A DNA stretch of 64,000 nucleotides. Source: a virus (lineage: Duplodnaviria; Caudoviricetes). Position 1 is the first letter of the stretch; the number at the start of each line of letters is the position of its first letter. The stretch spans positions 1-64,000 of IMG/VR virus record IMGVR_UViG_3300043120_000039; one strand, given 5' to 3'. The translations under genes and the position numbers were made by a program. The notes under the pieces are model-generated. The model had not been told where the DNA came from. It saw only the letters and a program-made list of their open reading frames with translations, and did not search any database. Positions 21,017 through 47,119 of the stretch are shown here, in pieces.

Positions 21017-21661
21017 TTACTCCTCAACACCAGTTGTCTCAAAGAAATCTGATAGATTATCAGGAAGTGTTACACCTAAATCTTGGGCTTGTTGTGCTAC
21101 ATCTTGACCAAGTAGGAATAATTGACTTGTTCGTTCTTCAGAGGTTTCAGTCTTCTTACTTGTTGTTGGAGAACCATCTAAACTTTTAGAAGTAGATGCA
21201 TCTGCGATCAAAGTAACACGTTGATAACCAACCCTTCGTGCTTGTTCAAAACTAATATCAAATGTGATAGAATCAAAACCTTCTTCACGAGGTTGGATAT
21301 TAGTAATATTCATTCTTGAATATTGTCTATTACCTTCGTCGATGAATAAGTCTGTATTGCTATTCCACCAACTATATAGCAAGTTTAAAGCTTCTTTAGG
21401 ACGCTCATTGAAGTCTGTATATCCAACAAGGTTACCGTCATATTTGATAACTGGAGTAGCTGTAACAGTAGCTGACATAGAAATAGCAATATTCTCTTTA
21501 ACCATGTGGTTAGTAATATCAGACTTATCACTAATAGTATACTTTGTCATTCGTGAAGCAAATGTTGGTGTAAAACTATGTACTGCATCAAAATAAAAGG
21601 AGGAGAAATCCCCTCCTCCAGTGTAGTTTGATTGAGTTGTAATATAAATAGGATCAGCCAT
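21017..21661 (-). CDS. Tail tube initiator/Dit-like protein
   Basis: FDA......S..T.Y.I.....ITNH motif, directly after the tape measure gene. Confidence 0.7.
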   Translation of the reverse strand: MADPIYITTQSNYTGGGDFSSFYFDAVHSFTPTFASRMTKYTISDKSDITNHMVKENIAISMSATVTATPVIKYDGNLVGYTDFNERPKEALNLLYSWWNSNTDLFIDEGNRQYSRMNITNIQPREEGFDSITFDISFEQARRVGYQRVTLIADASTSKSLDGSPTTSKKTETSEERTSQLFLLGQDVAQQAQDLGVTLPDNLSDFFETTGVEE

Positions 21662-24612
21662 TATTTAATACTCCCAGAAGAAAGATTCATTGCTGCACCT
21701 TCTAGCATATCACCATTACTCTTCTCAACTTTAGCTTCGATTACATCATCCAATCCATTAGGGTTGACGTTGATGTCAATTTGCAATTTACCACGCTCTT
21801 TAAGCCACTGCATAACATTAGCATTACGTTCATTAGTTGTAGAAAGTCTATCATATAAACTCGTACCACCTTCATAACCAGAGAGAAGTACACCTAATGG
21901 TCCAAGTAGCTTACCAGATTGTCTTAATGCACCTCTTGCTGCAGTTGATACTACACCTCTTGTGCCAGTGCTTGCTGCTGTTGTTGCAGCCGTAGTTGGT
22001 GCTTTTCCTGTTAAAGTTTTCATTGCATCTGCTGCACGTTTTGCAACTTTATAAGCAGTAGCTAAAGCTTTTACAGATTTAACTAATACCCACACACCTG
22101 CGGCGGCTCCAATCACTGTTCCTGTCCAAGTGAGAAGTGATTTAGTGGATTCATCACTTAACCCTGTTACATCTGAGATCCAATAAGCTAAATCTGTTAA
22201 TGCAGCTACTGGTAAACGAATAATGGTTGTTAACCCTAATAGAGCACCACCAAGTACAGTACCTGTAAAGTATGCAGCATTACCAGACTCTTTAGACAGA
22301 TCGTTGAAGCTATCTAATGCAAACATTACAGAAGGTTTCATCCCATCAAACATTTGCTTTTGTAATTCCACAAGTTGGTTACTTGCCCTACCAACTGCAG
22401 GTGATAAATTCTCTCGCAATGCTTTTGCTAATTCGTCATTGTTGTTAGCAAGTTCACTCATTGCTTTACCAAAGTATGGTAAAACTGTACCAGAGATTAA
22501 CTTACCTTGTTCCATTAATTTAAACAATGCAGCTTCACGTTCTTGAGCTGTCTTACTTCCGTCAATCAATCCAGCATCTACAGCAGCTTTTGCCATAGCA
22601 CGCATTGCGAACGGAACTCTCTCCATATCTTCAATTAAAGACGCAACTCTTTAACCAGCTTTCTTTATGTTTATCAACATTAAGTAGCATCTCTATGTCA
22701 CCATAGAAGTTGAGACTATATCTTCTATCTTTCGATAGCCCACCGTTTGGAGTATCATAAGCTTATACTCTACTCGCTTACATTCATCAGCGATAGTCGT
22801 TCGGCATGTTAAGAATAATTCTTAATTTAGCACAGGATTGTCTTCAATAAGAGTTCCCCTGTTTAGATGGGTTTATACTGAGCAAGAGACTGTTTTACCC
22901 AGTTGTTGTGTTCATTGTGTTCAATAATAATCGCTACTTATTATCCGCACCATTACGTGCTGCTATAGGCTTTCCCTATATGTTCGGACTATATCTTCAC
23001 CTTCACCATTATGTGTTAAGGGCGGTATTTAGAATGTCAATCGCTTACATTCACTTAGTCTCTGAGCCTTAATCTACTTGAGATTATTGGCTGCGGATTA
23101 CCCAATCTTGATAACTTTTTACTCTACCAAACACATTACTGTTTGCCCTTAACTATGTCACCATGCTAAGTTAGTATTATCAAGCTCTAAGTGGCTTCCC
23201 GCATTAACTCCGATTTATCAATTACATTTCTGTAAAAGGAGCCAGCACATTTTAAAATTACTAATAAAATCAATAACCTAGCTCGTCTGCTTGTATTTTA
23301 CCTTTCAATGTGTTCAACTAAGTTCGTTAAGCTTAGCCAGCAGCTTTACCTGCGTCTCTATGTCTCCATAGAAGTTCAGACTATATCCTCTGTACAATGT
23401 ACAGCTTCCTGTTTCGAGTCACTTGACCCTACTTGGCTACACTCATCACCAATAGTCGTTGCACGATCTCAATATTATTGAGCTTCGCTCAGGATTGTCC
23501 TCATCTTAAAATGTTAGGATGTTCCCTGAATTAAGGAAGTTTACCCTGCCCAAAAGTCTAGACAGCATTTGTTTAACAGCAAGAATTGTACCACCTAAGT
23601 CTTCCCGACTTAGACCCAATGCAACACCAGCTTCTTGAATACCTGTAAAGGTAGCTTTAAGGTCATCCATTGTCATCTTGTCGCCAGCAGCAGCAATCAT
23701 AGATGAGAAACCCTTACTTGCTTCCATGATTGGAGAACCTAAGCGCATAGCTTCTGAACGTACCCAAGCCATATTCTCTGCTGCTGCTTTAGAATCAGTT
23801 GATACAACTTTGAAACTCTTCTGCATAGATTCCATTTGCATACCGATGTTCAAAGAAGAACTAATTCCTGCTGTTAAAGCATAAGCACTACCGAGTGTTC
23901 CAACCATCTGCATTACGGAAGAGTTCATACGCTGTTGGAATACATTACGCTTTTCTACTTCACGTGTTAATCTACGATTCTGTGCAAGAGTATCAGAGAT
24001 TGCTGCACGTTCTTTTCTCATTAGATAAATAAGCTGTTCTTGAGTTTTAGCTTGCATGAGTTTCTGTTTAAGAACTGCTTTCTCTTCATCACTCATCTGC
24101 CTGATTGCACGATTAGATACCATGAAATTTCTAATAGACTTTTCTTGTAAAGCATTAAATTTTTCTTGGTCACGTTGCATTCTTACATGAGAATCATGAA
24201 GTGGTGATTTAGCTTTGTTTTCTGAGCGTAGTATATCAGCAAACATAGTCTGAGAAGCTTTGTTAGTGCCGTCAGATATTAAACCACCTACTGCTTGCTT
24301 CCTACGTGCATTCTGTTCCATTTGAACACGTTGTTCTTGTTTTTTAGCTAATTTGTCTTCAATTTTTAATTGGTCAGCAAGCAGGGTGTTAGATGCTTTT
24401 TGGAACTTAGTTTTATCTTCATAAGGTTTAGTTATTCTTGAACCAGAACCTCTTTTACTTGTACCTAAACCTCCAACATCTACTTGAAGTTTTAACATTT
24501 TAGCAACTTCAGATCTGAAGTTTTGTATCTGTTTACGAGTCCTTTTCAAACTTCGTTGATCAAGCTTTAACTTAACCAAGTTTGTATACTGACTCCTTAC
24601 ACGTTCTGTCAT
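21661..24612 (-). CDS. Tape measure protein, spliced: join(24612-23560, 23305-23280, 22912-22897, 22623-21661), about 685 aa
   Basis: Joining the exons gives KQMLS|KGKIQADEL|TQQLG|ERVPFA, the conserved tape-measure motif, in one continuous frame. Confidence 0.9.
22624..22896 (-). mobile_element. Group I intron 3 in tape measure gene (273 nt, no ORF)
   Basis: P1 cugggu/gcucag; AACGACUA and AAGAUAUAGUCU; terminal G; ucuc can pair with exon 4 gaga. Confidence 0.9.
22913..23279 (-). mobile_element. Group I intron 2 in tape measure gene (367 nt, no ORF)
   Basis: P1 gagcu/ggcuc; AGAGACUA and AAGAUAUAGUCC; terminal G. Confidence 0.88.
23306..23559 (-). mobile_element. Group I intron 1 in tape measure gene (254 nt, no ORF)
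   Basis: P1 cugucu/gggcag with U-G; P7 elements GACUA and GAUAUAGUC; ends in G; IGS acuuuu can pair with exon 2 aaaggu. Confidence 0.9.
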
Positions 24613-24614
24613 AG

Positions 24615-24768
24615 ATCACATCTCCTGAGCGGATACATAAAACCGCAACGAATGAAACATTCGTCCGGTTACCTACGGTATTATCAGGTATAACTTAATA
24701 AATTAAGGATTACATACCCTACTCCGTAGAGATTATAGAGAAGCTTGTATCTGTCCACTCTTTGTTTA
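24615..24768 (-). ncRNA. Putative TnpB omegaRNA/right-end region
   Basis: Structured non-coding stretch directly 3' of tnpB, with hairpins ACGAATG-TTT-CATTCGT and GCGG...CCGC. Confidence 0.5.
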
Positions 24769-25875
24769 CTATTTGTTTGCTAAACGCAAACCATCTTTAA
24801 GAATATTCTTAGAAGCATTTAAATCTCTGTCAACAAGTTGACCACAATTATCACATTTCCAAGAAGATTCACCTAGCTTAAGATTATCATTCTTATAACC
24901 ACATTCGTAGTGAATCTTACTTGAAGGGTAGTATCTATCTACGAAGTAGATGTCAACACCCCTTAAGAAAGATTTATATTCTAGTTGCCTACGCAACTCA
25001 TACATACCTACATCTAGTACCAATCTGTTTAACTTTTTGTTCTTACCTCTCGTCATTGACGAAACAGATAAATCTTCTAAACAGATTGTTTTGTACTTAG
25101 ATGTGATTGTATGACTCACATTGTGAAGCAACGCTTCACGTTGTTTACGTATTCTAAAGTGAAGTTTACTAATCGAAAGCTTGGCTTTCGCATACCGATT
25201 AGATCCTTTCTTTTTCTTAGATAACTTCTTTTGAAGTTTAACTAACTTCTCTAAACTTAAAGATAGTTTGTTACTCTTTTGGAACCCAGTTCCATCAGAA
25301 AGTATAGCTAAATCTTTAATACCTAAGTCAATTCCAACTTCTCCGCTTTGCGGAAAGTCCCCTTTATAATTAGAACAACCTTCGACTAAGATAGAAGCCC
25401 ACCACTTATCGTTATGGTAAGATATAGTGACTTGTTTAGGAACACCATCGAAACGCAGTTTCTCACGTAATTTTAGAGGTTTACTATCTTTACCTCTATT
25501 GAACTTCTCTAAATAAAGGTTTCTTCCCTCTACTTTAAACTTCTTACTTTCTCTGATAGAGAAAGAATCTTTAGCTCCACGTTTCTTGAATCTTGGATAA
25601 CCACTTAGCTTCTTAAAGAAACGCTTATATGAGTTTTCTAAGTCATTAATAGATTCTTGGAGGATAGCCTGACTTACGTCAGAATACCACTCATTCTCTA
25701 CACGTAACGTGTTATAGAGATATTCTCTAGCTGTTTTCTTAGAAAACTTAACTCCTTCTTTAGAGAAATTATCTAACATACTATTGAAACAATGTCGTGT
25801 TGTTCCAACCCATTGTAGTAGTTTCTCATGTTGCTCTTTAGAAGGCCGTAATTCGACCTTATGTGCTAATAACAT
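24769..25875 (-). CDS. tnpB: TnpB RNA-guided nuclease (IS200/605/607 family), no transposase nearby
   Basis: N-terminal HTH; GYPRFKK; RuvC motifs GIDLG, LEDL and DRDLNAS; PSSK and CDNCG zinc ribbon. Confidence 0.93.
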   Translation of the reverse strand: MLLAHKVELRPSKEQHEKLLQWVGTTRHCFNSMLDNFSKEGVKFSKKTAREYLYNTLRVENEWYSDVSQAILQESINDLENSYKRFFKKLSGYPRFKKRGAKDSFSIRESKKFKVEGRNLYLEKFNRGKDSKPLKLREKLRFDGVPKQVTISYHNDKWWASILVEGCSNYKGDFPQSGEVGIDLGIKDLAILSDGTGFQKSNKLSLSLEKLVKLQKKLSKKKKGSNRYAKAKLSISKLHFRIRKQREALLHNVSHTITSKYKTICLEDLSVSSMTRGKNKKLNRLVLDVGMYELRRQLEYKSFLRGVDIYFVDRYYPSSKIHYECGYKNDNLKLGESSWKCDNCGQLVDRDLNASKNILKDGLRLANK

Positions 25876-25982
25876 TACGACCCCCTTTTAAGTTAATTTA
25901 ATTCTCCAATTATTATAACCTACATTTTCATAGAAAGTAAGTATTATTTTATTAAATGTTGTATCTATTGCTTGGCTTTAAA

Positions 25983-26777
25983 TCAGTTAGAGTTACTTGT
26001 TTTTATTTTCTAATTCAGAATCCTTGTGCATAGCTTCTTCAAATTTAATCTTGATAAGCATTTGTTCAAATAGCCAGAATAATTCATCCAAGCAAAGTTT
26101 ATCTATTGACTCAACTGTTTCATTTAGAAACTCACAAGTAAGGATCTGGCTTCGAATAGTATAAATCCAATGACTGTTGTCATGTTGTTCAAGCAGCTTT
26201 TCCAGAGCATATCTATTACGATTTTTTACTCGTTTGTTGAGTTCTGTTTGTCTTGAGTTTCCGTTAGATAAATCAGACTCGGTGTTGAGCAGATAGTTTG
26301 GGAAAGCTGCATAAGAAAATTTACAGCAGATACCTTAACAAAAAGTGCCCAAATATCTAAAGGTGATTCTACATCATCCTCTAAATCAATAGGTTTATTT
26401 GAACCTTTCATAAACACATGGTCTAAATGAGTTTTAACATAGTTTTCAAAATCAATGTTTTGTAGATTTTCTAAGAATTGAAGTGCATACAATCCTGAAC
26501 CGCCCATGTCATCCATAAGGTCTAATTCATCACGAGCTTCTTGTTCTGTTTGATTAGCAAGAACTTGACCATACCAAATATTCATAAATTCTGGTAAACG
26601 TGCTAATGTGTCAAGGTGCTTCCATTTTCGGATAATATATTTATTACCACTGACCTCAAACTCTACTTCATTTTTCTTAATTTGTTCTTCTTTCTTAGTT
26701 TGCTTATCCGCATACTTATCCAAAATTTGCTGAGCAGCATTTGGTTTTTGTTTACGGTTATCGTATCTTTCTGTCAT
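25983..26777 (-). CDS. Tail assembly chaperone (26226-26777) with predicted -1 frameshift extension to 25983
   Basis: Lies between tail tube and TMP; in-frame slippery A AAT TTT at 26316-26322; the -1 frame is open to TGA at 25983. Confidence 0.75.
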
Positions 26778-28750: not shown

Positions 28751-28914
28751 TATTATTCCTTTTATTGAATTCAAATAATGTTGTGTTAGAAACACAAAGG
28801 AAGTTTGAGCTGATCAAGCTCGGATAGGTGTACACCGTTTCAGAAAATATGAAAGGCATAACTATATTGTAGCATAAAAACTCTTAATTTAAAAGAGAAT
28901 TATTATCGTCTAAA

Positions 28915-29595
28915 CTAAACCATAGTCCACGTTGAGTCACCACCTCCCGGCAATTCATAGTTAATATGAAAATGTAATGCGTTTATAGAAGCTAATGTTT
29001 CTTCTGATAACCCTAAGATTGTGTGGTTGTTTTGAATAATTGATTGGTCAGCTACATTAGACTTTGTAACATATTTAACTTCATCAACATATTCACCATA
29101 GTTGTCAACAACTTTGTAAATATAAGTTAATGCCAAACGTAATCTTGCACCAGAACGAGTTTCTTGTGATTCATAAACAGTCACTTTGTTATCAATAACA
29201 TTACCAATTTCTGTTACACCAACTAAACCATTTGTAGATCCAAAATGCTTGAATTTCAAATATTTATTATTTAACATTGTACGAAGTTTATCTAAGTCAT
29301 TATTTGCTTTACCAATATAAGCATATAATTCTACAACAACTTTATCTTTGTAAACATAAGTCTCATTCCCAAGCTCATCAATTTCATAGTAAATATGTCG
29401 TTGCCCCATCCCACCACTGTAGCTGGTCTGGTTCAGGATATCTAATGAAATAAAATCTGTTGTTGGTATTGAGGAATTAGGTGAATCTGGTACTAATTTC
29501 CTATTTGGTAATACTTCCAGAATGAAATATCCAAGTTTATCAATAGCAAATTGCTTTGCTGCGGATTGTTCTAATACTTCACTAATACCTGCCAT
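28915..29595 (-). CDS. Tail terminator/neck protein
   Basis: Position just upstream of the sheath gene. Confidence 0.55.
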   Translation of the reverse strand: MAGISEVLEQSAAKQFAIDKLGYFILEVLPNRKLVPDSPNSSIPTTDFISLDILNQTSYSGGMGQRHIYYEIDELGNETYVYKDKVVVELYAYIGKANNDLDKLRTMLNNKYLKFKHFGSTNGLVGVTEIGNVIDNKVTVYESQETRSGARLRLALTYIYKVVDNYGEYVDEVKYVTKSNVADQSIIQNNHTILGLSEETLASINALHFHINYELPGGGDSTWTMV

Positions 29596-30125
29596 TATGC
29601 TGTCCACCCTGCAATCCAATCACCAGCTTTTAATTTAGCCAGTGTGTTCATATCTGCTGCTGTTGCAATAACCTTAGCTTCTGGATAATAACCTACTTCA
29701 ACTGTGTAATCTCTTACAATCATTGCTTCAATGTGATTAATTACCCCATTGTTCCACACTTTTACTTCTACAACATTATAATATCCACCTACATTAGGTG
29801 GAATGAAAGTAGAACCTTCTGGTACAAAATAACTTGGTGGAATATAAATACCACTTCCAATAAAATCTGTACCTTCTACTGGTGCATAAACTGGGGTGTT
29901 TGTACGAAGAATGAAAATGTCATTAATGCTTAGACCTTCTTGCTCAGAAGATAATTCTTGTCGCTTAACAGCCTGAAGTGTACATTCCTGAGCAACTTCT
30001 GTAACAATTGTCATAGTCGTATTTTCATCACCACCCCAAGGGGAATTATTTGTATCAACTACTTTTGTACGATGGTAAAGTGGTAGTGGGAATCTCTTGA
30101 TAAGTTTCTTTGCTCTAAGAGCCAT
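29595..30125 (-). CDS. Head closure protein
   Basis: Position in the neck cluster. Confidence 0.5.
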   Translation of the reverse strand: MALRAKKLIKRFPLPLYHRTKVVDTNNSPWGGDENTTMTIVTEVAQECTLQAVKRQELSSEQEGLSINDIFILRTNTPVYAPVEGTDFIGSGIYIPPSYFVPEGSTFIPPNVGGYYNVVEVKVWNNGVINHIEAMIVRDYTVEVGYYPEAKVIATAADMNTLAKLKAGDWIAGWTA

Positions 30126-30604
30126 TATTCATCTCCTTTTGTAATTTTATAATCAGCATCATTGTACAATTGTTCTGTTTCAATCAATGGGGTACTGTGC
30201 CCTTTTTTCGCTATTGTGGACGGTTTCAGTGGAGGGTATTGTCCATACAGAATAGCTTCCCTAACGTCATCTGCACTAGCTCTACCTATTTTATGGAGCA
30301 TACGTGTTACGTTAAGTTTTTTACCTGTCAGAATCGCATTGGAGAGGTCGTAGAGCATACCTTCTGTAGTATTTTCATTAAGGAGTTCTGCTTCAGTCAT
30401 GAATTTGCGAGGAACTGTATGCCATGACCCATCTTCGTTCATGACCCCATTTTGCATATAGTCTGCAATTGTAGCTGTTGGAAGACCTGATGCTCGGTGA
30501 GTTGTATTATTAGGATAACCATATTCTACGGACACACCATCGAGGTAGTCCGCAATCATTTCTAAATCATCGAAAAAATCTTCGAATTCAGGTATTTTAC
30601 TCAT
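30125..30604 (-). CDS. Neck/tail completion protein
   Basis: VP.R.F and PPLKPSTIAKKGH..PLIET..L motifs. Confidence 0.75.
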   Translation of the reverse strand: MSKIPEFEDFFDDLEMIADYLDGVSVEYGYPNNTTHRASGLPTATIADYMQNGVMNEDGSWHTVPRKFMTEAELLNENTTEGMLYDLSNAILTGKKLNVTRMLHKIGRASADDVREAILYGQYPPLKPSTIAKKGHSTPLIETEQLYNDADYKITKGDE

Positions 30605-30666
30605 AAATATATTGCCTTTAAAAATTATACAAAGTATACTACTATTTTAACATTATAGAGGTAATT

Positions 30667-31437
30667 ATGAAAGATAAAATCATAGAAAATAGAGTATATA
30701 AAACTAACAACTACGGGGACATCATAGTCATTAAATATTTCAATGCTAGAGATGTGTTAATAAGATTTATAGACACATCATACGAAAAACACGTCTCCGC
30801 GGTAGATATAAGAAGAGGTTCTATAAGAGATCCTTTTGCAAAAACAGTAGAGGGTGTTGGTTTTTCTGGTGTGGGTGAATATCTACAAGCTGTTAATGGT
30901 AAGCACTTACGAGTAAATATAATATGGAAAGCTATACTTTATAGGTGTTATAATAAAAATTCTTTAGAAAAGAATACTACTTATAAAGGTTGTACTGTAG
31001 ACGAAAAATGGCATAACTTCCAGAATTTTGCGAGGTGGTATTACAAGAATTATCCTTCAGATGGTAAGGTATATGAGTTGGATAAAGACCTTAAGGTTAT
31101 AGGTAATAAAATTTACTCGGAAAACACTTGCTTATTCATACCACACAATATAAACACTTTTATAACACAAAGATGTAATGCGTGGTCTCCTAACTTAATA
31201 GGAACATCTTATAAGGTAAATTACAAGAAGTACACAGCAAGATGTGGTAATCCTGTAACAGGAACACGTGAGCATATTGGGTATTTCAACACTGAAATAG
31301 AAGCCCATCTTGCATGGAGGAAACGTAAATCTGAAATAACATATGAATTAGCTATGCAACAGAAAAACCCTGACGTGAAGGATGCCTTGCTACGTTGGAA
31401 AGAAGCTCTTGATAGTAATGTAATCCACCCTTATTAG
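30667..31437 (+). CDS. HNH homing endonuclease with AP2-like C-terminus
   Basis: W..IL.RCY, Y.GC.V...W.NFQNF..W, LDKD, YS..TCLF.P and G.F.T..EAH.AW motifs. Confidence 0.8.
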   Translation: MKDKIIENRVYKTNNYGDIIVIKYFNARDVLIRFIDTSYEKHVSAVDIRRGSIRDPFAKTVEGVGFSGVGEYLQAVNGKHLRVNIIWKAILYRCYNKNSLEKNTTYKGCTVDEKWHNFQNFARWYYKNYPSDGKVYELDKDLKVIGNKIYSENTCLFIPHNINTFITQRCNAWSPNLIGTSYKVNYKKYTARCGNPVTGTREHIGYFNTEIEAHLAWRKRKSEITYELAMQQKNPDVKDALLRWKEALDSNVIHPY

Positions 31438-31449
31438 GGTGGTTTATTA

Positions 31450-45399: not shown

Positions 45400-47119
45400 T
45401 TATCGCATAGATTGTTTCATGTCATGATACTTTGTGCGGACAGATGTTGTTGGGATAGGGACTGGTCTGTGCACTTTGTTTATTTTTATTTGATGGAATG
45501 CATCAGCAGTGGCGTCACAGATATCGTCGTGGACACCAGATATACGCACACTTGGGTCAAATATTTCCAACTCTTCATGGAAAGTTTCATTCCAATCTGC
45601 CTTAACCACACTAACCATCCTATTTTCTGCAATTACTGCAAAAGGTTCAAATGCTTTTAGTTTACGGTTTTTAGTGTTTGATGTCTTCATACGCTTAACT
45701 AAAACACCTGCTGCTGATATATCTCCAATCATCTGGTCACAAGCTGCTTTTCCGCTCGACGATGGATCTTCTGGGATATAGGTTGTAACATTACCCCACT
45801 CTTCTTGATCACGCAACCCAGTTTGTATAATTTCATCCACCACACCGGCATACCTTTTCCTGAACCTAACCACATCAAGGATGTATATATGATGATCCTT
45901 ACCTTGACCCATAAGAACACCAACAGTATAATCAGGGTCTGGGTATTTTTCAGAAGGAATACTCCCAGCCAAGTCATAAGCACGTACTATTTTAACAAGG
46001 TCAGGTACATCATGAAGCATTACTGTTTCAGTCCACTCCCTCTTATATAAACCTGCTGCTGTTTCCTGTACAAGCCATGCACCGTTAAGTAGCCTCATCC
46101 TTTCAATACGAGGTAAGGATTTAAGACGTGAGACGTACAATGGATCATGCTCCAAAAGAATTGGATTGTCTTCACAAGTTGCTGAAATAAAACGAAAACT
46201 CATAGGCCCAGAATCTTCGCCATATTGTGAAACAAGTTCTTCTCTTGAATCACCCCAGATCATGTCATTACCTTGCCGGATAAACCACTTTTCTACACCA
46301 TCCATCTCTGGTTTAGGTATTCCATAGTTCTTTTCATCGAGATAACCTGCCGCCTGCAGCCATTTTCTTAGGTAGCAATTAAATTCTGGGTTGCACGTAA
46401 TCTTCATAACAGGCTTCATATTTGCCATAGTACGCATACGTGATATAAAATAAACCACCTGAGATTCAAGCATCTGCTGACCCTCATCAATGAGGAACGC
46501 TGCTACCTGCCAGCCTTGAAAATTGTGCTTATCGCTTTCTTTCTCGCAGTGACACATCTTAATTTCGGCACCGCTAGGAAATTTAAACTCCATTGTAGAA
46601 GGTTTGACATGTACAGAAGGACAAGCTTCTTTATACATATTCTGTGCCGTATCTAAAAGACCACCCACACCTTTAATCATCGGGGTTGTTCTTCGAACCA
46701 TTACCCCCCTAAATTCTGGCATATGAACATATTGAAGCATATCCATAATACCAAGATAGGATTTACCTGAACCCTTTTATCTTACAGTCGCTACACTGTT
46801 TCTAATGTTTCCACTAGGATCGGACTATATCTTCCGTCTTATAGACAGCCTCCTGTTTCGAAATCGCTTGATTCCTACTCTACTCCATTATATACTTTGT
46901 ATATTGTTTCGATAGTCTCTGAACGTTGAATCACTTAATGTGAAACCTTCGCTGCTGATTGCCCTCGGCTTAACGTTAGGGTTCCCAGACAATTAAAGAG
47001 GTATATTAAAGCGCAACCAGTTTGGTAAATTTAGCAGCGCCACCAAAAACTGTAATATCAGATTTTGATTGTAAGAACATAGCCTGCTTCTGAGAAGCAG
47101 GACCAAGTTTTTTAGTCAT
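45400..47119 (-). CDS. terL: Terminase large subunit, spliced: join(47119-47033, 46773-45400), about 486 aa
   Basis: Splicing restores Walker A GGAA|GSGKS; also IDE Walker B, TCNP, YDLA and HDD.CDA nuclease motifs. Confidence 0.93.
46774..47032 (-). mobile_element. Group I intron in terL (259 nt, no ORF)
   Basis: P1 gcgcugcu/gguugcgc with U-G; CAGAGACUA and AAGAUAUAGUCC P7 elements; terminal G. Confidence 0.9.

Follow-up and report, generated by a model that had tools for sequence, protein, structure and literature searches.

A transposase-less TnpB-omegaRNA element beside the tape measure gene of a Vibrio phage relative: a candidate for RNA-guided homing

Introduction

By the accepted view, the nuclease TnpB restores a transposon that has been excised by its own transposase, TnpA. 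The guide of TnpB derives from the sequence that follows the right end of the element (PMC10690162; PMC13565253). In the IS607-type CboTnpB, for which the target-adjacent motif (TAM) is TGGG and the scaffold ends in UCGG, one position prevents self-cleavage (PMC10690162). IS605 has also been recorded to spread between copies of a plasmid independently of TnpA (PMC13565253), and the same review of 2026 includes, as a theoretical class, "transposon non-restorative homing" with co-infecting phages or plasmids as recipients; a cyanophage preprint of that year treats the role of phage tnpB as open (10.64898/2026.02.14.705889). No study of TnpB-driven homing between phages was found in the full-text literature, subscription journals and supplementary files being outside the scope of that search. 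In the present work we analyze a tnpB gene with an omegaRNA-like scaffold located between the tail assembly chaperone gene and the tape measure gene (TMP) in a 64,000-nt stretch of virus DNA, positions 1 to 64,000 of the record IMGVR_UViG_3300043120_000039 (hereafter the window).

The window makes up the first 64 kb of a record of 124,995 bases (G000), rated 99% complete, and the host genome is that of a myovirus-type phage akin to Vibrio phages, Vibrio phage vB_CoeS_P1 being the closest isolate (82.9% identity over 56% of a 4.9-kb query). An earlier interpretation, made from the letters alone and called below the sequence-only reading, had proposed that the TnpB acts as a free-standing RNA-guided homing nuclease. 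Our analysis confirms that an intact, tnpA-less TnpB-omegaRNA element lies beside TMP and partly supports the interpretation as a whole.

Results

Boundaries of the element and its empty alleles

24630-25983, minus strand: whole tnpB-omegaRNA element, 1354 nt, delimited by empty-allele contigs; boundary ambiguous by 1 nt (shared G)

Logan contigs from four metagenome runs were compared with the window over 24200-26400. Two of the four, X12 and X13, which belong to different studies, each contain a contig in which 24629 is followed directly by 25984; 1354 nt are omitted, with no letters between. The X12 contig, 1231 nt long, has one other letter on each side of the junction (one within 64 nt, the other within 417 nt). 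This exact empty allele of the same phage fixes both ends of the element, the left flank ending in ...TAACTG (25989-25984) and the right flank reading CTCAGGAG from 24629. The element occupies the short spacer between the tail chaperone gene and TMP. The sequence-only reading had also put it between these two genes, and its limits of 24612-25950 are corrected by the empty allele to 24630-25983. Two other boundary models, A and B (ends at 24632/25985, or a 4-nt repeat), were likewise replaced by the empty-allele boundary.

Empty-site relatives, which had been proposed as the way of defining the ends, were thus found both as this exact allele in two runs and in vB_CoeS_P1, whose chaperone gene and TMP are separated by about 260 nt with nothing between them; its homology to the window ends at 24615 and restarts at 25994. 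Further empty sites come from the comparison of phage 355E48.1 with 1.193.O and F100, of 1.193.O with 1.187.O and, with an 11-nt difference, of IBT_VpB-34 with P018-4. Six other copies of the element, located at other sites, lose their mutual likeness after the tip ...GTATC plus NG, and ten copies have ten different right flanks, so that the predicted guides differ from site to site. When 1.193.O is aligned with 501E54-1, nothing but the element region matches (81% identical), the flanking genes being unrelated. Near-identical copies also occur elsewhere: an X11 contig agrees with the window as far as 24632, differing at 4 of 218 nt, and beyond that point has an unlike flank. Contigs of run X12 with loose ends at 25886 and 25888 were also present. 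The left end begins, in 355E48.1 and in 1.193.O, with 9-10 nt that are similar to the right flank. A search with the exact right-end 18-mer gave four loci; one of them (L025) was rejected as a chance match, having neither tnpB nor scaffold.

A tract of near-identity shared with sister phages

24257-26414, no strand assigned: near-identity tract to the sister contigs L023 and L024, 1 difference (24793) in 2158 nt

An IMG/VR search with the TMP protein found two sister contigs of one lineage, L023 and L024, as sole close relatives, and both have the element in the position that it occupies in the window. Between them and the window, 886 of 18,352 aligned nucleotides differ (4.8%), and the divergence outside the tract is 3-5%. 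The tract consists of the element, 373 nt of the TMP flank and 431 nt of the chaperone-side flank, and is the longest low-divergence block in the compared sequence; the longest difference-free runs measure 1621 nt (24794-26414), 1303 nt (28781-30083), 744 nt, 593 nt and 536 nt (24257-24792). The region is not intrinsically conserved, being 74-86% identical to vB_CoeS_P1.

A tract that includes both flanks looks like the product of co-conversion during homing. Since it is accompanied by an exact natural empty allele, homing is favoured, and, on the sequence evidence, TnpB-driven RNA-guided homing between co-infecting phages appears to be the best-supported mechanism, its probability being in our estimate slightly above even. 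Of the homing with co-conversion suggested earlier, the part concerning the element agrees with the 2158-nt flank-inclusive tract, which is what homing would leave, and the part concerning the spread of introns is not supported (see below).

Conservation of TnpB and of its RNA scaffold

24769-25875, minus strand: tnpB coding sequence, 368 aa; RuvC residues D183/E267/D351, zinc-finger cysteines C325/C341/C344
24630-24762, minus strand: omegaRNA-like scaffold of six helices with the tip ...GUAUCCG, from covariation; begins 7 nt past the tnpB stop codon

The protein contains the Pfam domains HTH_OrfB_IS605 (1.4e-08), OrfB_IS605 (5.6e-20) and Cas12f1-like_TNB (9e-17), all above their cut-offs, and matches the NCBIfam model guided_TnpB (NF040570) with 253.6 bits against a cut-off of 100; the exception models IS200_TnpB (253 bits, cut-off 425) and IS607_TnpB (168 bits, cut-off 350) are not reached. 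Its best match in PDB is ISDra2 TnpB (8bf8_A, phmmer E 1.7e-47). D183, E267 and D351 align to the GxDxG, xE and DRD positions of that protein, and the C-terminal CxxC pair is retained. These three residues, together with C325, C341 and C344, are invariant in 19 of 19 aligned relatives (58-88% identical), which upholds the intact RuvC triad noticed earlier, and the catalytic residues are retained in all ten element copies. The ratio of nonsynonymous to synonymous substitution rates (dN/dS, Nei-Gojobori) is 0.07-0.21 against nine other copies and 0.11-0.14 in five further pairs, all 14 pairs indicating purifying selection (L026, a duplicate of L028, was excluded from alignments A4 and A5 and from the dN/dS table). 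Because dN/dS is low and the catalytic residues do not vary, tnpB is evidently under purifying selection as a nuclease.

Matches to this TnpB were obtained in 411 of 50,697 phage records and at five loci of IMG/VR. A metagenome scan with the 19-sequence alignment gave 295 relatives, the best 80 of which include 2 above 80% identity; among 120 protein clusters listed, at least about 60 are at least 68% identical to TnpB, and the contigs of these listed matches, at most ~150 kb, fit phage-sized records. A scan of 185,579 species genomes, which detects close relatives only, gave four loci, just two of them close, both on short phage-like contigs of metagenome-assembled genomes (MAGs). These two contigs (L019 and L020, 3.9 and 8 kb) belong to a MAG labelled Flavobacteriaceae and carry tnpB copies 86-88% identical to ours; a bacterial origin of these contigs is less likely than the mis-binning of phage fragments.

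The scaffold, 133 nt long, is alignable across ten copies located at different sites. RNAalifold predicts for it 27 pairs, 9 of them with compensatory change; with the terminal hairpin included there are 34 pairs, with 97.5% of cells paired and 13 pairs changed on both sides. In the shuffled controls such two-sided changes number 5.1 +/- 1.5, and none of 500 shuffles reaches 13, a significance overstated by the relatedness of the ten sequences; a control free of that weakness, in which the partner is slid by 1-3 columns, gives 0-8 such pairs and lowers the paired cells to 39-48%. At the locus itself a 178-nt stretch folds with -44.7 kcal/mol (z -2.62; 1 of 200 shuffles is equally stable). The structured 3' region that had been put at 155 nt and described as reaching the ribosome-binding site and start of TMP is borne out in both respects: the distance from the tnpB stop codon to the TMP ATG is 156 nt, the fold is stable and the covariation across the ten copies is strong. 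A covariance model built from these copies (R1) scores 140.7 bits at the locus and also detects shorter scaffolds directly 3' of two clade-2 tnpB genes (42.6 and 37 bits); it found no solitary scaffold copies in the searched remainder of the record. Rfam gave two chance-level matches only over 24550-26050 (E 3.4 and 7.4), so the scaffold belongs to no curated family. A hairpin with a U-run at 24665-24647, flagged as terminator-like by a scan, is read as helix 6 of the scaffold instead, since 4 of its 7 pairs covary. None of the sequencing runs listed as containing the locus is recorded as RNA. We infer that the scaffold is the omegaRNA of TnpB and continues into a guide derived from the flank.

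These data bear on the possibility that the element is a passenger cassette with no present activity and that the tract arose by ordinary homologous recombination between phages. Other recombination tracts (1303, 744 and 593 nt) do occur in the same comparison, as such a history would predict. However, it is on the element that the longest tract is centred, the catalytic residues show no variation and dN/dS is 0.07-0.21, the RNA structure is maintained by covariation, and the family is rich in close members on phage-sized contigs, as counted above (at least about 60 of the 120 listed clusters at 68% identity or more, contigs up to ~150 kb). We therefore regard an inactive passenger as quite improbable.

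Predicted guide, target-adjacent motif and expression

24610-24629, minus strand: predicted guide/target of 16-20 nt, positioned right after the tip by the rule for TnpB guides
25984-25989, minus strand: TAM-side flank TAACTG, 3-8 nt past the stop codon of the frame overlapping the chaperone gene; its role as TAM is presumed
25876-25983, minus strand: left end of 108 nt with an imperfect hairpin and a promoter-like TTACTT-17-TATAAT (25940-25912), from sequence reading

As the element ends at 24630, the predicted guide begins at 24629. It spans the Shine-Dalgarno sequence of TMP, AGGAG (24626-24622), which is followed by a 9-nt spacer, and at a length of 20 nt (to 24610) includes the ATG (24612-24610); at 16 nt (to 24614) it ends before the ATG. 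The proposal that the guide covers the translation start of TMP thus holds for the ribosome-binding site and, at 20 nt only, for the start codon, the guide beginning 6 nt upstream of the string that had been given for it. In several relatives, too, a start codon follows 6-38 nt past the end of the element, the gene being the portal gene in 355E48.1, although this position may only reflect where insertion is tolerated in compact genomes.

The five bases before the target at five empty sites are AACTG, CACTG, TACTG, AGGTG and AAAGG, and the right-end tips are ATCCG, ATCTG (six copies), ATCGG, GTCGG, ATAGG, ATAAG and ATTTG. All tips and empty sites end in G, whereas at position -4 every tip (12 of 12) has T and every empty site (5 of 5) has A or G; at two sites the boundary is ambiguous over 9-10 nt, and the assignments there lean on the tip alignment. 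The difference at position -4 between tips and empty sites would parallel the self-avoidance of CboTnpB. The TAM side here reads ...CTG, unlike TTGAT, the TAM of ISDra2.

In the left end, TATAAT (25917-25912) equals the consensus -10 hexamer, and TTACTT (25940-25935), at a spacing of 17, matches TTGACA at 2 of 6 positions. The hexamers of the promoter proposed earlier for tnpB are accordingly where they had been placed, but this promoter is weak: a consensus promoter scan did not call TTACTT-17-TATAAT and found 4 sites in the region against 7.4 +/- 3.0 in shuffles. Four relatives retain TTGTTT-17-TAnnnT, overlapping a conserved 7-bp hairpin, at the same place of the left end. Since no terminator-like site lies between the chaperone gene and tnpB, transcription of tnpB by read-through from the chaperone gene is equally possible. 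The left end is 108 nt long in five copies, 41 nt in 355E48.1 and absent in the copy at L027 253-1359, where an upstream open reading frame (ORF) takes its place and abuts tnpB, which looks like absorption of the gene into an operon.

The overlap of the predicted guide with the TMP ribosome-binding site would also suit co-option by the phage, in which the TnpB-omegaRNA complex, or omegaRNA processing of a chaperone-tnpB-TMP transcript, tunes TMP, or the nuclease destroys competitors without copying itself. The element is co-oriented with the tail genes, with which the terminator-free junction to the chaperone gene agrees, and RNA-guided repressors related to TnpB occur in prophages (10.1101/2023.11.30.569447; PMC13418256). 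Yet those known repressors have lost the RuvC site, which is intact and conserved here, and no observation favours the modulation of TMP expression suggested earlier; empty alleles and tnpB-free relatives are evidently viable, and the family inserts upstream of unrelated genes; co-option is in our opinion very improbable.

Search for a transposase and the second tnpB

Y1 TnpA (PF01797) had no match in the whole 124,995-base record or in any of five related phage records, a control search with this profile giving matches in 6 of 14 genomes. An IS607-type TnpA, that is, a serine recombinase with an N-terminal MerR-type helix-turn-helix (HTH), was likewise found neither in the record nor in the five related phages, so that the absence of tnpA claimed earlier extends to both types and to the entire 125-kb genome. 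The sole serine recombinase of the record (G000 101796-102203, plus strand) has an N-terminal catalytic domain (residues 8-143) and matches a DNA-invertase PHROG; it has one counterpart in each of the five related Vibrio phages, with or without tnpB (e.g., L107 1480-2193). This gene was considered as a trans-acting TnpA and set aside: being present in 6 of 6 phages checked, even the tnpB-free vB_CoeS_P1, and having the domain order of an invertase, it is a gene of the clade and not an IS607 TnpA.

The record contains a second tnpB just past the window (64726-65814, in an element at G000 64629-65814, minus strand; L116 629-1829), 54% identical to the first one and followed by a related shorter scaffold (82 nt, 37 bits, E 7.5e-5) ending in ...ATTTG. 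In the clade of this second gene, phage 1.187.O has upstream of tnpB a weak trace of an IS607 transposase N-terminus (L005 2549-2686), matching Pfam MerR_1 (5.4e-10) and NCBIfam transpos_IS607 (2e-07, profile positions 1-50 of 187).

Such a remnant of the MerR HTH in a sister clade fits an explanation in which the element is a non-autonomous one of IS607/IS605 type that depends for its movement and precise excision on a TnpA acting in trans, whether encoded by the host, by a co-infecting phage or by an autonomous sibling, with TnpB as the classical restorer. It agrees with the empty alleles, which are scarless, lack exactly 1354 nt and keep the flank haplotype, with the nearly identical copies found elsewhere and with junctions that share a terminal G or YG. 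The likeness of the first 9-10 nt of the left end to the right flank in two relatives is what a recombinase choosing pseudo-sites would give, but microhomology-mediated capture would give it equally. Against it, neither a Y1 nor an IS607-type TnpA was found in the genome or the five related phages, the inconstancy of the left end (108 nt, 41 nt or absent) is unexpected if a transposase needs both ends, the scan of 185,579 species, limited to close relatives, gave no close TnpB but the two on phage-like MAG contigs, and the flank-inclusive identity tract is left unexplained. Mobilization by a foreign TnpA consequently seems unlikely to us, though less so than the other two alternatives.

Tape measure gene, introns and genome surroundings

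23356-23599, minus strand: group I intron 1 in TMP, ORF-less (Rfam RF00028, 74.3 bits, model positions 1-253)
22691-22952, minus strand: group I intron 2 in TMP, ORF-less (Rfam RF00028, 59.6 bits)

The idea that tnpB and the TMP introns spread together, or are linked, finds no support in three observations that bear on it. The TMP of vB_CoeS_P1 has four tandem group I introns (L001 3190-4376) separated by mini-exons of 25, 48 and 56 nt, with no tnpB anywhere in that genome. The sister phages L023 and L024, carrying the same element, have introns at the first site of the window and at another one 19 nt further on, which is absent from the window, and differ from it around its second intron, so that the intron complement varies among all three relatives compared. 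Finally, 657 nt lie between the end of the identity tract at 24257 and the first intron. Another gene of the window contains a further group I intron, the third one and of full length (46801-47058, minus strand, Rfam 72.1 bits).

26226-26777, minus strand: tail assembly chaperone gene (Pfam Phage_TAC_15, 1.3e-06; phrog_3840, 1.7e-10)
25993-26334, minus strand: ORF of 113 codons overlapping the 3' end of the chaperone gene (ORF call; no family match)
23600-24612, minus strand: TMP, first exon (Pfam TMP_3, 8.1e-11; phrog_35923, 3.7e-63)
21661-22626, minus strand: TMP, C-terminal part (phrog_25927, 2.1e-72, profile positions 293-623 of 625)

On the minus strand of the window the tail sheath and other tail genes are followed by the tail assembly chaperone gene, the overlapping ORF, tnpB and TMP. 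The ORF may, from its position, be a frameshift extension of the chaperone. Elsewhere in the window lies a free-standing HNH endonuclease gene (30667-31437, plus strand; phrog_953, 2e-62), absent from L023: the alignment to this contig jumps from 30598 to 31449 within 3 nt, the segment ~30599-31448 being missing, and divergence peaks right beside it (28-32 differences per 200 nt). HNH endonuclease genes of Vibrio phage F100 (L018 617-1291) and K470-type phages adjoin intergenic sites that hold tnpB in other phages, namely a portal-proximal site and a site between PhoH and the head protease, which suggests that these are hot spots common to selfish nucleases.

Discussion

We suppose the following course of TnpB-driven homing. 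Transcripts running through the right end would carry the next 16-20 nt, from the Shine-Dalgarno sequence to the ATG of TMP, as a guide. In a mixed infection, TnpB-omegaRNA would cut the empty allele, in which the left flank ...AACTG abuts the target, and would spare its own allele, in which the right-end tip ...ATCCG occupies the TAM position. Repair of the break from the occupied genome would copy the element together with some flank, a "non-restorative" homing like that of the free-standing homing endonucleases of T-even phages. Since the guide is whatever follows the right end, each new insertion would be competent for self-targeting if a TAM-like motif precedes it.

A wider proposal is advanced tentatively, and we consider it less likely than not: that a transposase-free lineage of phage tnpB-omegaRNA works as an RNA-guided free-standing homing endonuclease, in which the invariant T at position -4 protects the occupied allele and sites are switched by capture. 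Empty co-infecting relatives would suffer a cut where an essential gene begins (in this case at the TMP ribosome-binding site and ATG) and be either converted or eliminated, and the element would reach new sites by illegitimate or microhomology-mediated capture and not by transposition.

Several points weigh against homing. The empty allele shares the flank haplotype of the occupied one, which fits precise excision by a transposase no less than an un-invaded ancestor. The second difference-free run (1303 nt at 28781-30083) indicates recombination tracts away from the element too, and metagenome contigs may be strain chimeras. Near-identical copies at other sites are beyond what homing alone creates. 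Late co-transcription with the tail genes might come too late for efficient homing. Lastly, the empty site of vB_CoeS_P1 differs from the predicted guide at 2 of the first 5 and 6 of the first 16 positions, and because of these mismatches it is improbable that this phage is targeted at present.

The locus offers a natural system for a TnpA-independent homing mode, since it exists in an occupied form and in an exactly empty one, shares a tract with sister phages and lies in a genome in which no TnpA was found. The non-restorative mode has so far been shown only for plasmids, and phage crosses could address it directly. If homing by TnpB is true, the mosaicism of lytic phages would be driven by RNA-guided nucleases in addition to homing endonucleases made of protein only, and the commonness of tnpA-less tnpB genes in phage records would be explained.

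Comparison with known systems

With the TnpB of IS200/IS605 elements, as described for ISDra2 (PMC8612924; 10.1101/2023.03.14.532601), our protein shares the domain order, the RuvC triad and the zinc finger, and the locus shares a structured RNA encoded 3' of the gene and a guide from the flank, predicted in our case. It differs in having no Y1 TnpA, in an IS200_TnpB score below the cut-off of 425 and in residing in a phage genome. As regards the subterminal palindromes of that family, there is a hairpin at each end here and their sequences differ, no dedicated comparison having been run.

The likeness to IS607 TnpB, including the tnpA-less copies of CboIStron (PMC10690162), consists in a tip that resembles the TAM, shares its last nucleotides and differs at one upstream position, in scarless empty alleles, in the retention of tnpA-less copies and in the IS607 transposase remnant of the sister clade. 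Unlike IS607, the element has no GG core (flank CTG, tip CCG), although GG is present in the 1.193.O subgroup, and it reaches only 168 bits with IS607_TnpB against the cut-off of 350. An IStron was rejected as well, since RF00028 had no match in 24550-26050 at E up to 10 and the introns lie 1 kb away inside TMP.

The free-standing homing endonucleases SegF and SegB of T-even phages (PMC13565253) resemble the element in their intergenic location between conserved structural genes, in presence/absence polymorphism and in flank-inclusive tracts; the phage studied here also carries an HNH endonuclease gene that its sister phage lacks. In contrast to these proteins, target recognition would be by RNA, and the insertion itself would separate self from non-self. 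The IS605 gene drive in multicopy plasmids (PMC11870625; PMC13565253) is similar in its TnpB-dependent, TnpA-independent spread to empty homologous sites, but proceeds among plasmids within one cell line and with an element that still encodes TnpA, whereas co-infecting phages would be concerned here.

Finally, the nuclease-dead TldR repressors of prophages (10.1101/2023.11.30.569447; PMC13418256) resemble this TnpB, as predicted here, in being phage-borne, RNA-guided and directed at a promoter or 5' region. In our case RuvC is intact and the predicted target belongs to the tail operon of the phage itself, with the tip occupying the TAM position; with its triad complete, TnpB-omegaRNA is, by its sequence, not a TldR-type repressor. 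The element as a whole is best classed among the TnpB/omegaRNA (OMEGA) mobile elements, as one that lacks a transposase.

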